A stretch of 64,000 nucleotides of DNA, taken from NCBI RefSeq assembly GCF_001677475.2, contig NZ_CP015229.1, one strand, 5' to 3'. Below the pieces are notes generated by a model. It searched no databases and was not told the DNA's origin. It saw nothing but the letters and a program-made list of their open reading frames with translations. This document shows positions 44,043-47,913 of the stretch, in pieces. The translations under genes and the position numbers were made by a program. The DNA comes from Escherichia coli. Lineage in GTDB: Bacteria; Pseudomonadota; Gammaproteobacteria; Enterobacterales; Enterobacteriaceae. Position 1 is the first letter of the stretch. Each line of letters starts with the position of its first letter.

Positions 44043-44501
44043 ATGACAATCACGGACCTGGTACTGATTCTTTTCATCGCCGCACTCCTGGCCTTCGCGA
44101 TCTACGATCAGTTCATCATGCCCCGCCGTAACGGCCCCACTCTGCTGGCAATTCCTTTGCTCCGGCGTGGTCGCATCGATAGCGTTATATTCGTCGGATT
44201 GATTGTCATTCTTATCTATAACAACGTCACGAATCATGGCGCGCTAATAACAACATGGTTATTAAGTGCACTGGCTCTGATGGGTTTTTATATATTCTGG
44301 ATCCGCGTTCCGAAGATCATCTTTAAACAAAAAGGTTTTTTCTTCGCCAATGTCTGGATTGAATATAGCCGAATCAAAGCGATGAACTTGTCGGAAGATG
44401 GCGTGTTGGTGATGCAATTAGAACAGCGTCGGCTGTTAATCCGCGTTCGAAATATCGACGATCTAGAAAAAATTTATAAGCTTCTCGTTTCAACTCAATA
44501 A
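44043..44501 (+). CDS. yobD: UPF0266 membrane protein YobD
   Basis: ORF 44043..44501, 152 aa. Confidence 0.8.
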
Positions 44502-44513
44502 GTTATGAATTTA

Positions 44514-44566
44514 GCCAAAGCTATGTTTAGTGTATTTTTAATAATCAGACATAGCTTAGGCTATAT
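44514..44566 (+). promoter_or_regulatory. Putative MntR operator(s) of the mntP promoter
   Basis: aaagctatgttt and acatagcttaggctata resemble the MntR palindrome AACATAGC-N-GCTATGTT as I recall it. Confidence 0.35.
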
Positions 44567-44665
44567 TACCTCTTCCCTTATTTGTTATTTATTTTAACGT
44601 TTCATTGATATATAAATCTAAATGAAAATCGTTATCAATAAAGCAATGAAATAATATATTCCAAC

Positions 44666-44673
44666 AGTTGTTT
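44666..44673. repeat. Left copy of 8-bp target-site duplication AGTTGTTT flanking the IS
   Basis: Identical 8-mer immediately outside both IS ends (44666-44673 and 47082-47089). Confidence 0.6.
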
Positions 44674-44765
44674 ATGAGACGACAATAACTCAGTCCGCCT
44701 GGCGCCGATTATTCTGGCCGGTTTTGTAACCTGAGTGTCATTTACATGATCCAACAGGAAATGGC

Positions 44766-46265
44766 GTGACGCTCAATACTTCTCAGGTCAGTTACTATAT
44801 GACTCAGCGTAAGAAAGGTATAACTCAGCATATCTCGGCCATGAAGGCTGGTATCTCAGTCCGTTCTGGTCGTCGGATCGAAAAAGGAGAGTGGGCAAAA
44901 AACAGTGTTCGGCACTGGCGCACACGCAAAGATCCTCTGGAAGCTGTGTGGGACAGCATGCTTGTTCCTCTGTTGAAAGAGAGGCCGGCTCTGACACCAA
45001 CAACTCTACTGGAGATGCTACAGGATAAATATCCCGGCCAGTACCCCAACAGCCTTCGAAGAACAATGCAACGGCGGGTTCGCGAATGGAAACTACAGTA
45101 TGGTACAGAGCAGGAGGTCATGTTCCGCCAGCAACATCAGCCCGGCCTGCGAGGCCTGTCGGACTTTACTGAACTGAAAGGTGTAGTTGTCACCATCGCC
45201 GGTAAGTTGTTGGCGCATAAGTTGTATCACTTCCGTCTGGAATGGAGCCACTGGAGCTGGATGCGGGTTGTTCTGGGTGGTGAGAGCTTCTCTGCTCTGG
45301 CTGAAGGCCTGCAGGAAGCCCTCGGACAACTGGGCGGAGTGCCGGTAGAACATAAAACGGACAGCCTGAGGGCAGCATGGAAACAACAGGGCGAAGATGG
45401 ACGCCGCGAGCTGACTGAGCGTTATGCTACTCTCTGTCAGCACTACGGAATGCAGGGCGTACACAATAATGCCGGTCGGGGCCACGAAAATGGCTCGGTT
45501 GAAAGTGCCCACGGACATCTGAAAAGGCGTATCTGTCAGGCGCTGATACTGCGGGGCAGTAACGACTTCAGCACCATAGAAGAATATCAGGCCTTCATCA
45601 CTCAGCAGGTTATGCGGCACAACCGTAACAATCAGGATCTGGTCAAGGAAGAACGTCTTCATCTGAAACCGCTGCCGCTTCGTCGCAGTGCTGACTATGA
45701 TGAGCTGACTGTGAGGGTTAGTCGCAGCAGTACCATCAATGTGAAGCACGTCGTCTACAGCGTACCTTCCCGGCTTGTAGGTCAACTGTTACGGGTCAGG
45801 TTATGGGACGATCGTCTGAGCTGTTACGTTGGCAGCAGCGAGGTCATGAGCTGCCCTCGCGTCAGACCAGAAAAAGGGAAGACGCGGGCCCGTCGTATCG
45901 ACTTCCGACATGTGATCGACAGTCTGGCAAAAAAGCCCGGTGCGTTCTGCCATGCAACGCTGAGAAATGACATCCTGCCGGACGATGAATGGCGGAGGCT
46001 GTGGCGTCGCTTATGTAATCATCTGGAGCCCGATATGGCAGGAAGGCTGATGGTACATGCCCTGAAACTGGCTGCAGGATACGACGATATCTCAGTCGTG
46101 GCAAAAGGTATGGAGCAGATGCTGAATACCCCGGGAAACGTGGATCTGCACCGGCTGATGCGCTTCCTGGGTATAAAAGAAAAGGCGTTGCCGGTAGTCA
46201 ATGTGATACAGCATAACCTGAGCAGTTATGAGCAACTACTGCGTGGCAAGGGAGGTTCGCAGTGA
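44766..46265 (+). CDS. istA: IS21-family transposase IstA
   Basis: ORF 44766..46265, 499 aa; N-terminal HTH-like region; start may be GTG 44766 or ATG 44799; stop overlaps istB start (GTGA). Confidence 0.85.
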   Translation: MTLNTSQVSYYMTQRKKGITQHISAMKAGISVRSGRRIEKGEWAKNSVRHWRTRKDPLEAVWDSMLVPLLKERPALTPTTLLEMLQDKYPGQYPNSLRRTMQRRVREWKLQYGTEQEVMFRQQHQPGLRGLSDFTELKGVVVTIAGKLLAHKLYHFRLEWSHWSWMRVVLGGESFSALAEGLQEALGQLGGVPVEHKTDSLRAAWKQQGEDGRRELTERYATLCQHYGMQGVHNNAGRGHENGSVESAHGHLKRRICQALILRGSNDFSTIEEYQAFITQQVMRHNRNNQDLVKEERLHLKPLPLRRSADYDELTVRVSRSSTINVKHVVYSVPSRLVGQLLRVRLWDDRLSCYVGSSEVMSCPRVRPEKGKTRARRIDFRHVIDSLAKKPGAFCHATLRNDILPDDEWRRLWRRLCNHLEPDMAGRLMVHALKLAAGYDDISVVAKGMEQMLNTPGNVDLHRLMRFLGIKEKALPVVNVIQHNLSSYEQLLRGKGGSQ

Positions 46266-47017
46266 GCAATATCCATCACCTTGAACATAGCCTGCGTAAA
46301 CTACGCCTGACACGAGTTGGAGCTGAATGGCACGCTCTGGAAAAACGAGCGCTGGCAGAAGGCTGGACACCATCGCGCTATCTTCTGACGCTATGCAATG
46401 AAGAACTCCTGTGGCGCGAGAGTGAAAAACTGCGTCGTTATAAAAAGGAGGCCCGGTTGCCAGTTGCCAAAACGCTGAGCGAATACGACTTCAGTCAGGT
46501 GCCGGAACTGAATGGAGCTCAGTTCCGGCAACTCTGTGAAACGACAGACTGGGTTGATGCAGGAGAAAACGTTCTGCTGTTCGGAGCCAGCGGGTTGGGG
46601 AAAAGCCATCTGGCGGCAGCGATCGTGGATGGCGTAGTAGGTCAGGGCTACCGGGCCCGGTTCTACAGCGCAGGAGAGCTGTTGCAGGAACTACGTAAAG
46701 CCAGAGCTCAGTTGAAACTGAATGAGCTGCTACTGAAACTGGATCGCTACCGGGTGATAGTGGTGGATGATCTTGGCTATGTCAAACGCGATAGTGCCGA
46801 AACGGGTGTGCTGTTCGAGTTAATAGCGCATCGCTATGAACGTGGGAGCCTGGTGATAACCAGTAACCATCCGTTCAGCATGTGGGGCAGCATCTTCGTG
46901 GATGAGACTATGGCGGTGGCTGCGGCAGACAGGCTGCTCCATCACGGATATATGTTCGAACTGAAAGGGGAAAGCTACAGGAAAAAGACAGCGAAGGCAG
47001 TAACAAGCGCGACTTGA
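46262..47017 (+). CDS. istB: IS21-family helper ATPase IstB (AAA+/DnaC-like)
   Basis: ORF 46262..47017, 251 aa; Walker A GASGLGKSHLA; Walker B VVDDLGY. Confidence 0.85.
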   Translation: MSNIHHLEHSLRKLRLTRVGAEWHALEKRALAEGWTPSRYLLTLCNEELLWRESEKLRRYKKEARLPVAKTLSEYDFSQVPELNGAQFRQLCETTDWVDAGENVLLFGASGLGKSHLAAAIVDGVVGQGYRARFYSAGELLQELRKARAQLKLNELLLKLDRYRVIVVDDLGYVKRDSAETGVLFELIAHRYERGSLVITSNHPFSMWGSIFVDETMAVAAADRLLHHGYMFELKGESYRKKTAKAVTSAT

Positions 47018-47081
47018 TGTCGCCCTGAAGGGTGCGGCCAGTATAGTTGGCGCGAGTCGGCAAAACTAGTTGACGTCTAAT

Positions 47082-47089
47082 AGTTGTTT
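47082..47089. repeat. Right copy of 8-bp target-site duplication AGTTGTTT
   Basis: See left copy. Confidence 0.6.
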
Positions 47090-47111
47090 TATATTCTCAA
47101 AATATGTTAAG

Positions 47112-47240
47112 GTTGCGCCCTCATTTGGGGAGTAGCCGATTTCCAGATTCCGGAAATGTACGTGTCAACATACTCGTTGCAAAACGTGGCACGTACGGAC
47201 TGAACACTTTCAGTCAGGCGAGACCATATGCACATCAATC
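47112..47240 (+). promoter_or_regulatory. yybP-ykoY-type Mn(2+) riboswitch aptamer in mntP 5' leader
   Basis: Conserved elements ttggggagtagc ... gtcaacatac ... ggcgagaccatatg upstream of mntP; boundaries approximate. Confidence 0.6.
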
Positions 47241-47346
47241 GCTATGCCTGCATGAACGCGAAAACCCGTCGCGGCTTGTTGTTCATGTATGCATGTTTGC
47301 TGGGGGCGATGATGTGTTTTATGGATACCCCGGTCAGGACGTTGTC

Positions 47347-47913
47347 ATGAATATCACTGCTACTGTTCTTCTTGCGTTTGGTATGTCGATGGATGCATTT
47401 GCTGCATCAATCGGTAAAGGTGCCACCCTCCATAAACCGAAATTTTCTGAAGCATTGCGAACCGGCCTTATTTTTGGTGCCGTCGAAACCCTGACACCGC
47501 TGATCGGCTGGGGAATGGGCATGTTAGCCAGCCGGTTTGTCCTTGAATGGAATCACTGGATTGCGTTTGTGCTGCTGATATTCCTCGGCGGGCGAATGAT
47601 TATTGAGGGTTTTCGTGGCGCAGATGATGAAGATGAAGAGCCGCGCCGTCGGCACGGTTTCTGGCTACTGGTAACCACCGCGATTGCCACCAGCCTGGAT
47701 GCCATGGCTGTGGGTGTTGGTCTTGCTTTCCTTCAGGTCAACATTATCGCGACCGCATTGGCCATTGGTTGTGCAACCTTGATTATGTCGACATTAGGGA
47801 TGATGGTTGGTCGCTTTATCGGCTCAATTATTGGGAAAAAAGCGGAAATTCTCGGCGGGCTAGTGCTGATCGGCATCGGCGTCCAGATCCTCTGGACGCA
47901 CTTCCACGGTTAA
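47347..47913 (+). CDS. mntP: Mn(2+) efflux pump MntP
   Basis: ORF track gives 47104..47913, but start set at ATG 47347 ([18 protein letters not shown]), 188 aa; the upstream in-frame stretch covers the riboswitch leader and is not coding. Confidence 0.9.

Follow-up and report, generated by a model that had tools for sequence, protein, structure and literature searches.

What has become of the manganese control of mntP, the Mn2+ exporter gene, in an Escherichia coli strain in which 2.4 kb of additional DNA separates it from its upstream neighbour, yobD? The site lies in the window, a 64-kb stretch of contig NZ_CP015229.1. A preliminary description had reported an IS21-family element at this position and had suggested that the Mn-responsive transcriptional control of mntP might be lost or rewired, with control by the riboswitch alone remaining. 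We regard it as practically certain that an intact ISEc10 has inserted in the yobD–mntP region with duplication of the hexamer GTTGTT, which is the demonstrated part of our interpretation. The complete statement, ISEc10 transposition with this duplication and with loss of MntR and Fur control included, we consider likely.

Results

The inserted element and its genes are listed below.

44673..47082, + strand: complete ISEc10 (IS21 family), 2,410 bp, with ends TATGAG...CTAATA
44766..46265, + strand: istA, transposase, 499 aa, GTG start (open reading frame list, NCBIfam, Pfam)
46262..47017, + strand: istB, AAA+ helper ATPase, 251 aa (open reading frame list, NCBIfam, Pfam, PDB)

Over its full length, the core of the element (44674-47081) shares 99.8% identity with ISEc10 copies annotated in RefSeq. 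Against the RefSeq copies labelled 'IS21-like element ISEc10 family', the coverage is 100% and the identity ranges from 98.5 to 99.8% (CFT073, 98.5%; OkiPb01695 and RM9088, 99.8%), and the nearest copy, that of OkiPb01695, differs by 4 nt, with 2 + 2 amino-acid differences. ISEc10 is carried by 898 of 5,426 complete E. coli genomes, and the 64-kb window contains one copy, at 44673-47082. A search for the ISEc10 end pattern among the GTDB species representatives gave no Escherichia match.

The istA and istB reading frames overlap by 4 nt, and istA has the same coordinates within the element as the RefSeq istA in four other ISEc10 copies. IstA scores 226.4 bits (cutoff 160) with the NCBIfam model NF033546 transpos_IS21, residues 12-304 aligning with positions 2-293 of the 294 in the profile, and it also matches Pfam Mu-transpos_C_2. 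No rve domain was found in IstA by Pfam, and phmmer found no match to IstA among the PDB sequences, the solved IS5376 IstA included, even at E = 10. The candidate DDE residues, assigned by inspection only, are D133 (SDFT), D199 (KTDS), and E246 (SVES), with spacings of 66 and 47 residues. IstB scores 266.7 bits (cutoff 200) with NCBIfam NF038214 IS21_help_AAA, and it matches Pfam PF01695 (IstB_IS21) at 7.9e-62 and the IS5376 IstB structure 8q3w at 2e-45; its Walker A motif is GASGLGKS (residues 108-115), and its Walker B motif is IVVDD. The original assignment to the IS21 family, with IstA and IstB reading frames, is confirmed by these family-model matches above the cutoffs, and the element can be named as ISEc10. 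Its intactness is also upheld, as both proteins are equal in length to the RefSeq proteins and have 2-4 substitutions. These comparisons indicate that 44673-47082 is a full-length, coding-intact, and apparently functional ISEc10.

The ends of the element and the flanking repeats are as follows.

44673..44720, + strand: left terminal inverted repeat, containing two candidate repeat units (L1/L2) at a 23-nt offset
47035..47082, + strand: right terminal inverted repeat
44667..44672, no strand: left target duplication GTTGTT, single copy in K-12
47083..47088, no strand: right target duplication GTTGTT, single copy in K-12

The terminal inverted repeats are 48 nt long, imperfect, and 71% complementary, in agreement with the imperfect repeats of about 45 bp seen initially. 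A second, weaker candidate repeat unit is seen at both ends at an offset of +23, with 8/12 matches. The last 31 nt of the right end are identical across the four other ISEc10 copies compared, and the termini TATGAG...CTAATA are conserved in every ISEc10 copy examined. The 5'-TG...CA-3' ends usual for the IS21 family are absent, since TG occupies positions 3-4 of the left end and the right end is without CA; this is a trait of ISEc10 generally and is not peculiar to the copy near mntP.

How long is the target duplication? The octamer AGTTGTTT is found at 44666-44673 and at 47082-47089, enclosing 2,408 bp, and these were the length and the 8-bp duplication originally proposed. The ends were set by comparison of about 20 other copies, which gave 22 independent right flanks and 11 independent left flanks. 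The base following ...CGTCTAAT is A in 22/22 right flanks, and the base preceding ATGAGACG is T in 11/11 left flanks. Because this T and A beside the 2,408-bp core are invariant, we assign the element to 44673-47082, a length of 2,410 bp. The flanking octamers are identical because the terminal T and A of the element chance to equal the target bases. By itself, the octamer is not rare, with 4 copies in the window as against 2.7 expected. The target duplications at five other full or miniature copies, two of them miniature derivatives, are about 6 bp (5-7 bp). An element of exactly 2,408 bp with an 8-bp duplication of AGTTGTTT would also be compatible with the identical octamers, with the K-12 empty site, which fits either reading, and with one other copy (L005), which fits 7-8 bp as well. 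However, the invariant T and A argue against these ends, and with them six other copies (L003, L004, L021, L023, L015, and L018) would have no direct repeat at all, whereas the 2,410-bp ends give repeats of 5-6 bp in these copies. We consider the 2,408-bp anatomy very improbable, and the hexamer GTTGTT is the most probable target duplication. Of the initial claim, the identical octamers stand, but the duplication length and the element length most likely need correction.

ISEc10 resembles IS21 and IS5376, the prototypes of the family studied by cryo-EM and biochemistry (PMC10122671), in its two overlapping genes, one for the transposase IstA, with a putative DDE triad, and one for the AAA+ helper IstB. 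It also resembles them in its short target duplications and right-end -35 box, and in its terminal inverted repeats, each with two candidate repeat units. It differs from IS5376 (PMC10122671) in the size of IstA, 499 aa vs about 400 aa, with no phmmer match, and in the duplication of about 6 bp rather than 5 bp. The termini are TA...TA, in contrast with the usual TG...CA of IS21 and IS5376.

When the element is removed, the yobD–mntP region lines up base for base with those of K-12 and Z503. Both of these have one AGTTGTTT and lack the 2.4-kb element, just as had been foreseen for an insertion-free reference such as K-12. The uninterrupted site is found in 5,419 of the 5,426 complete E. coli genomes, while the ISEc10–mntP junction occurs in none of the 5,426 and is absent from the metagenome contigs searched. 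At the level of sequence, it is the empty site, rather than the octamer, that proves the insertion. Could the IS copy have been misplaced in the yobD–mntP intergenic region during assembly? Misassembly is classically associated with IS elements, and the junction is seen in no other genome or metagenome contig. However, both junctions are clean, the flanks rejoin into the exact wild-type sequence, and the target duplication is perfect, a feature that a misjoin would not produce. An assembly artefact is, in our judgment, hardly credible. Among complete E. coli genomes, the best match to the flanks of the insertion has 99.2% identity. The copies of ISEc10 in CFT073 and other RefSeq genomes have the same terminal 31 nt and the same istA and istB coordinates and lengths, and it is in location alone that the present copy differs from them, as no searched genome has a copy in the mntP promoter. 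The element was already known, and its insertion is an ordinary strain-specific mutation.

The following features lie upstream of the insertion.

44043..44501, + strand: yobD (DUF986 protein), the upstream neighbour, intact (open reading frame; annotated yobD in the K-12 and Z503 orthologous regions)
44507..44528, no strand: predicted MntR box 1, GAATTTAGCCAAAGCTATGTTT (one arm of a palindrome; mntH/mntS core)
44547..44568, no strand: predicted MntR box 2, AGACATAGCTTAGGCTATATTA (palindrome; mntH/mntS core)
44618..44636, no strand: Fur-box-like sequence, CTAAATGAAAATCGTTATC (14/19 consensus matches)

The stop of yobD at 44501 is 165 bp upstream of the left octamer, and the mntP ATG at 47347 is 265 bp downstream of 47082, so the distances first given for both genes agree with the coordinates. 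The core ATAGC-N4-GCTAT, with at most one mismatch, occurs at 44511 and 44551, and it also occurs upstream of K-12 mntH (one box) and mntS (two boxes). In the published layout of mntP, two MntR sites are separated by more than 20 bp and lie about 170 bp away from the promoter. In the native arrangement, the mean distance of the two predicted boxes from 47122 is 168 bp. Because the core is common to mntH and mntS, and because the two boxes match the published layout in number, spacing, and distance, they are probably MntR operators. The MntR-box-like palindromes noted before are thereby supported, at 44507-44528 and 44547-44568. The Fur-like box is a weak match to the consensus, and there are 9 such matches in the whole window. 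According to a review, Fur acts at the mntP promoter, and H-NS represses mntP, with MntR and Fur relieving this repression. Several sub-threshold Rfam matches (mir-282, mir-4662, and others; 44497-44578) coincide with the hairpin of the two MntR boxes and were rejected as chance.

Insertion at this region is not limited to ISEc10. E. coli W444 (NZ_CP122507.1) has an independent IS1 of about 0.8 kb in the yobD–mntP intergenic region, with a 9-bp duplication, CTCTTCCCT. Like ISEc10, this IS1 separates the MntR boxes from the mntP promoter; it is located a short distance downstream of box 2. Its site is about 100 bp farther upstream than that of ISEc10, and the Fur-like box and promoter-proximal DNA are still joined to the promoter.

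The right end of the element and the retained downstream region contain the following features.

47070..47075, + strand: outward-facing -35-like hexamer TTGACG in the right end of ISEc10 (promoter scan)
47084..47113, + strand: presumed native mntP core promoter, intact (leader 5' end and sequence)
47084-47089, + strand: presumed -35, TTGTTT, part of the mntP core promoter
47105-47113, + strand: presumed extended -10, TGTTAAGGT, part of the mntP core promoter
47119..47215, + strand: Mn2+ riboswitch aptamer (yybP-ykoY) in the mntP leader (RF00080, 41.9 bits, E 3.1e-9)
47347..47913, + strand: mntP, Mn2+ exporter, intact (in-frame Met at 47347; annotated mntP in orthologues)

These coordinates agree with the earlier placement of the element, downstream of the MntR boxes and upstream of the Mn riboswitch. 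With the presumed leader start at 47122 (-225 from the ATG), which is taken from published constructs, that placement can be refined. ISEc10 entered at about -40 of the presumed mntP promoter, where the presumed -35 shares bases with the duplicated hexamer. All of the sequence from about -39 downstream is kept, including the presumed -35, the extended -10, the 225-nt leader, the riboswitch, and mntP. The sequence upstream is now 2,416 bp farther off; this comprises the AT-rich region, the Fur-like box (native position about -79), and both MntR boxes (about -148 and -188). The displaced AT-rich tract has a GC content of 25%, compared with 53% for ISEc10.

The RF00080 score of 41.9 bits is below the gathering score of 45, and an Rfam search at the gathering threshold gave no riboswitch in the window, while an E-value search recovered the aptamer. 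The K-12 mntP leader has a score of 41.6 bits. In published work, a K-12 mntP fragment from -225 to +45, driven by Plac, is activated by Mn, showing that the riboswitch alone confers induction. Since the K-12 leader scores alike and yet is Mn-activated, we ascribe the sub-threshold score to a shortfall of the model. Between the IS end and the mntP ATG, there are four substitutions and a 1-nt indel relative to K-12; only one substitution falls within 47119-47215, the aptamer match, at a place where the bases are unpaired and the alignment is poor, and the rest are downstream of the aptamer. On this alignment, the leader is orthologous to the characterised K-12 mntP leader. A 40-codon upstream open reading frame in the leader (47228-47350) was not treated as coding because the K-12 1-nt indel inside it changes the frame.

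The TTGACG hexamer of the right end, with a spacer of 16 nt and TATTCT at 47092-47097, makes up a candidate hybrid promoter with 9/12 consensus matches. The presumed native hexamers, TTGTTT and TAAGGT, are of poor consensus, with 6/12 matches plus TG. The promoter scan of the region gave 4 promoter-like sites vs 2.8 expected. No terminator-like site was found on the + strand between the istB stop and the IS end, and the fold of the RNA that would read through the right junction is no more stable than those of shuffled sequences (z = -1.85). The right terminal inverted repeat of IS21 carries a -35 box (PMC10122671). A single copy of IS21 has weak promoter activity, and the binding of IstA masks the end (PMC10122671). 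IstA binding may occlude the right-end -35 of ISEc10.

Discussion

How would the insertion change the response of mntP to manganese? Published work indicates that MntR acts on mntP at initiation, while the riboswitch and Rho act during elongation, and that the MntR-dependent induction of mntP is large in K-12. We propose that, once ISEc10 has landed about 40 bp upstream of the leader start, Mn-MntR and Mn-Fur would no longer be able to act on the mntP promoter. Because these regulators would be cut off from the promoter, the Mn-dependent control of initiation would be lost. From the arrangement of the sites, we think it fairly probable that MntR and Fur control of mntP has gone. Transcription of mntP would then come from the weak core promoter, the possible hybrid promoter, and istAB read-through, and the Mn responsiveness would be kept after initiation, by the riboswitch and by Rho-dependent termination in the leader. 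The initial view that only riboswitch control is left is too narrow because Rho termination also acts, the Fur-like box is displaced as well, and the IS -35 could make a Mn-blind promoter.

Is it possible that nothing changes? MntR and Fur could act from 2.5 kb, by looping or through H-NS filaments, or their loss could make no measurable difference. Even in the native arrangement, the sites work over about 150-190 bp, an unusual distance, which argues that the mechanism of MntR is not classical contact activation, and ISEc10 in the afa region left the afaA transcript unaffected. However, the DNA that now separates the sites from the promoter is 2.4 kb of 53% GC, transcribed, and transposase-bound, and a precedent for MntR action at kilobase range was not found. 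Regulatory neutrality is thus improbable, and we continue with loss of MntR and Fur control as the preferred reading.

In which direction would mntP expression change? Beside lpp, ISEc10 brought expression down 6- to 10-fold; in the ampC promoter or attenuator, it reportedly caused overexpression; in the afa promoter, it lowered the activity of a reporter; and in the afa region, it left the afaA transcript unchanged (PMC7482066, PMC8764528). In those cases, the same element lies in or beside a promoter, and expression was measured. Since the published insertions differ in direction, the sign of the net change in mntP is not predictable from the sequence.

A net gain, with constitutively higher mntP transcription, is a possibility that we hold only tentatively. 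It could arise from the hybrid promoter, from istAB read-through, or because the AT-rich tract, to which H-NS binds, no longer adjoins the core promoter. The better consensus and 16-nt spacer of the hybrid promoter relative to the presumed native one, the -35 box at the right ends of the IS21 family, the lack of terminator-like sites on the + strand from the istB stop to the IS end, and the ampC precedent all favour such an increase. Furthermore, H-NS normally silences mntP, and the IS is much less AT-rich than the tract it displaced. If MntR works only through the displacement of H-NS from this tract, the separation of the tract from the promoter could itself de-repress mntP. On the other hand, the low promoter activity of one IS21 copy and the masking of its end by IstA speak against a gain, the riboswitch and Rho would continue to limit the output, and the points in favour are all at the consensus level. 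Because strong overproduction of MntP is toxic, a large increase would be selected against.

A net loss may be entertained with the same reserve. Here, the removal of the activator sites, and of any UP-like AT-rich DNA, would result in poor induction and higher Mn sensitivity. The poor native hexamers suit an activator-dependent promoter, and the size of the MntR effect in K-12, together with the lpp and afa reporter results, is in accord with a decrease. However, neither the core promoter nor the leader is damaged, the riboswitch by itself still gives Mn induction from a foreign promoter, and a better -35 is available from the IS. Selection in nature would also probably act against an allele that made the strain strongly Mn-sensitive.

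ISEc10 here and IS1 in W444 have independently entered the interval from the MntR boxes to the promoter, and on that basis it can be speculated that the uncoupling of mntP from MntR by IS elements is a recurrent, selected change and no accident, in which the near-consensus -35 of ISEc10 makes mntP constitutive and gated only by the riboswitch and Rho. We regard this idea as unlikely; if it were true, it would provide a natural experiment separating two Mn-sensing layers.

Conclusions

Existing knowledge of IS21 elements and of mntP regulation is left unchanged by these results, which are of use chiefly for annotation: ISEc10 is the proper label for the 2.4 kb, and the regulatory region of mntP in this strain should be marked as disrupted. 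The comparison of copies also describes ISEc10 more cleanly, with a length of 2,410 bp, duplications of about 6 bp, an outward -35, and miniature derivatives. Judged from the sequence, an effect of the insertion on manganese control is plausible. If the regulatory interpretation holds, this would be a natural allele in which initiation control, by MntR, Fur, and H-NS, is parted from leader control, by the riboswitch and Rho, and such an allele could serve research on manganese homeostasis.

Identity of the element and the empty site

Identical copies of the 8-mer AGTTGTTT stand at 44666-44673 and 47082-47089, with 2,408 bp between them. In a megablast search of 5,426 complete E. coli genomes, this 2,408 bp was matched full length at 98.5-99.8% identity, and all the matches carry the annotation 'IS21-like element ISEc10 family transposase / helper ATPase IstB'. 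Matches occur in 898 of the genomes, on chromosomes and plasmids, with a near-complete copy in 525. The closest copy has 4 DNA differences from the window element, and no second ISEc10 copy lies in the window. The features of the element are as follows.

44766-46265, + strand, istA, 499-aa ORF with a GTG start
46262-47017, + strand, istB, 251-aa ORF, overlapping the 499-aa ORF by 4 nt
44673-44720 versus 47035-47082, imperfect terminal inverted repeat, 48 nt, 71% complementary

IstA scores 226 bits against NCBIfam transpos_IS21 (cutoff 160), and IstB scores 267 bits against IS21_help_AAA (cutoff 200). IstB also passes the IstB_IS21 model of Pfam and hits the solved structure of IS5376 IstB at 2e-45. 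Both proteins have the lengths of their RefSeq counterparts, with 2-4 substitutions. Because IstA has no sequence match to any solved structure, and in Pfam only the Mu-transposase C-terminal domain, its candidate DDE triad (D133, D199, E246) was assigned by inspection only. The IS21-family element with overlapping IstA and IstB ORFs of the preliminary description is thus borne out by the profile scores and the annotation, and its distances of 165 bp on the yobD side (gene end 44501) and 265 bp on the mntP side (start 47347) are right.

With the element and one repeat copy removed, the window lines up base by base with the intergenic regions between yobD and mntP in K-12 and Z503, each of which has a single AGTTGTTT there, as expected from the proposed alignment to an insertion-free K-12. 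Of the 5,426 genomes, 5,419 have the site uninterrupted; the left junction is in none of them, and the right junction was not found in JGI metagenome contigs. We regard the element as ISEc10, not a new IS, and both its identity and its insertion as settled with very high confidence. An IS inserting into a promoter is a standard event, and this is an ordinary feature of an already known kind. The suggestion that it is possibly recent holds only in the sense that it is younger than the split from the compared relatives and that its duplication is perfect and its genes are intact.

The rest of the window is collinear with K-12 1,861,692-1,922,341 at about 98% identity. The best match among complete genomes is 99.2%, and therefore the host lineage lies outside that collection. 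Other differences from K-12 were seen. At the window start, a pncA-like gene (nicotinamidase-like ORF, 3-578) is followed almost immediately by yeaC and msrB. K-12 1,856,000-1,930,000 gives no match to the first 728 bp, so the roughly 9-kb ydjE-ydjL cluster, which adjoins yeaC in K-12, is apparently absent here (1-738). About 225 bp (22175-22400), which include an ATG and a membrane-like N-terminal peptide continuing into yeaV, are absent from K-12 at 1,883,151, between dmlA and yeaV; compared with the window strain, K-12 may have lost the 5' end or promoter of yeaV by deletion.

Element ends and target duplication

The ends were compared among other E. coli copies of ISEc10 and copies from other Enterobacteriaceae, the latter collected by an exact right-end 23-mer search. 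An A follows ...CGTCTAAT in 22/22 independent right flanks, and a T precedes ATGAGACG in 11/11 left flanks. These invariant bases therefore belong to the element, TATGAG...CTAATA, 2,410 bp, at 44673-47082.

Direct repeats around ISEc10 copies with the 2,410-bp ends

GTTGTT, window copy
GTCTTC, locus L003
GGCACC, locus L021
CCCGTT, locus L023
CCTTAC, locus L015, miniature derivative
CACCTG, locus L018, miniature derivative
TTTTC, locus L004
GGTCACC or GTCACC, locus L005

With the 2,408-bp ends, most of the compared copies have no duplication at all. The target duplication in the window is most likely 6 bp, and two of the eight bases in the 8-mer (A before GTTGTT, T after) are IS termini that match the target by chance. 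The identical 8-mers described earlier are present, while the lengths assigned to the element and its duplication, 2,408 and 8 bp, are revised by the compared flanks. Relative to the IS21/IS5376 prototypes (PMC10122671), ISEc10 has a longer, divergent IstA, termini TA...TA instead of TG...CA, and a target duplication about 6 bp long; these are traits of the known ISEc10.

The comparison also returned miniature derivatives of about 48, 63, and 96 bp, in Enterobacter asburiae TN152 (L015 319-364) and Citrobacter braakii ATCC 51113 (L018 8423-8483; L017 7611-7704). Each is made up of just the outermost ~24 nt from the two ends, joined directly or through a short filler. Two have 6-bp direct repeats (CCTTAC, CACCTG), and the appearance is that of MITE-like elements, or of copies with internal deletions, that inserted in this form. 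Exact right ends were also found in assemblies of the alphaproteobacterium Martelella alba BGMRC 2031 (L020, L021) and an actinobacterial Collinsella sp. MAG (L022), one being a full 2,410-bp copy with the duplication GGCACC (L021). Such hosts are unexpected for an IS of enterobacteria, and contamination or mis-binning seems more likely here than transfer.

Position in the mntP promoter

The mntP leader constructs of other laboratories start at -225 relative to the ATG, with Plac replacing everything upstream, which places the leader 5' end at about 47122. Counted from 47122, the last IS base is at -40, and the right copy of the duplication covers -39 to -34. The strongest candidate for the core promoter has a -35 TTGTTT at -38 to -33 and an extended -10 TGTTAAGGT at -17 to -9. 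The duplicated hexamer thus overlaps the presumed -35, and its right-hand copy keeps the core promoter whole. The preliminary location, between MntR operators and riboswitch, is correct, and is more exactly about -40 of this predicted promoter. The following sites lie to the left.

44507-44528, putative MntR box 1, ATAGC-N4-GCTAT core common to the K-12 mntH and mntS upstream boxes
44547-44568, putative MntR box 2, same core
44618-44636, Fur-like box, weaker than the MntR boxes, natively at about -79

Natively, the MntR boxes are 188 and 148 bp from 47122 (mean 168), which fits the published description of two MntR sites separated by >20 bp and lying about 170 bp away from the promoter. The insertion has put an extra 2,416 bp between the promoter and all three boxes, together with the AT-rich tract (171 bp displaced, 25% GC). 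The MntR boxes also form an inverted repeat with one another (44497-44578; 19-nt arms, 89% complementary, 22-nt loop), and this larger palindrome accounts for spurious sub-threshold Rfam microRNA matches there on both strands.

Downstream, the Mn riboswitch (RF00080) matches at 47119-47215 with 41.9 bits. The characterised K-12 leader scores 41.6 bits, so the window aptamer is as good. Default Rfam annotation misses this riboswitch in E. coli (window 47119-47215; K-12 locus L002 5462-5558), the gathering score being 45. The leader also has a 40-codon ORF (47228-47350), its stop codon sharing bases with the mntP start (ATGA). A 1-nt indel in K-12 shifts its frame, so a conserved uORF is improbable here.

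In the complete genome of E. coli W444 (L027, NZ_CP122507.1), an IS1 with a 9-bp duplication CTCTTCCCT lies just downstream of MntR box 2 (equivalent to window ~44570-44578). It is independent of the window insertion and, like it, parts the mntP promoter from the MntR boxes. An IS occupies this interval in at least 1 of the 5,426 genomes, and in no more than about 3. Such independent insertions thus occur but are rare, and the counts are too few for arguing selection.

Expected effect on mntP control

The insertion may supply new mntP transcription, from a hybrid IS-flank promoter and/or from istAB, which points towards mntP. TTGACG at 47070-47075 in the ISEc10 right end and TATTCT at 47092-47097, spaced by 16 nt, are promoter-like and nearer consensus than the presumed native elements; the IS21 right TIR carries a -35 box, and the + strand shows nothing resembling a terminator after istB. 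In CFT073 the mobility of ISEc10 has been demonstrated. Published promoter-proximal insertions of ISEc10 (PMC7482066, PMC8764528) have acted in different directions, and one reportedly raised ampC. The promoter scan of the region gave 4 sites versus 2.8 expected, all consensus matches only, and IstA binding may mask the IS21 right end. Raised basal mntP expression is thus a tentative reading. Lowered basal expression, as at lpp (down 6- to 10-fold) and in the reduced reporter activity with ISEc10 at afa, is a possibility of about the same standing. An unaltered basal level, as for the afaA transcript, seems improbable.

H-NS silences mntP, and Mn-MntR and Mn-Fur lift the silencing at the promoter. 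Initiation is the step at which MntR works; the riboswitch and Rho work on the elongating leader, which alone gives Mn induction from a foreign promoter. The insertion would physically uncouple the MntR/Fur layer from the promoter and leave the leader layer intact. To judge from this arrangement of sites, MntR/Fur-dependent induction of the Mn2+ exporter has probably been lost in this strain, with riboswitch and Rho control retained.
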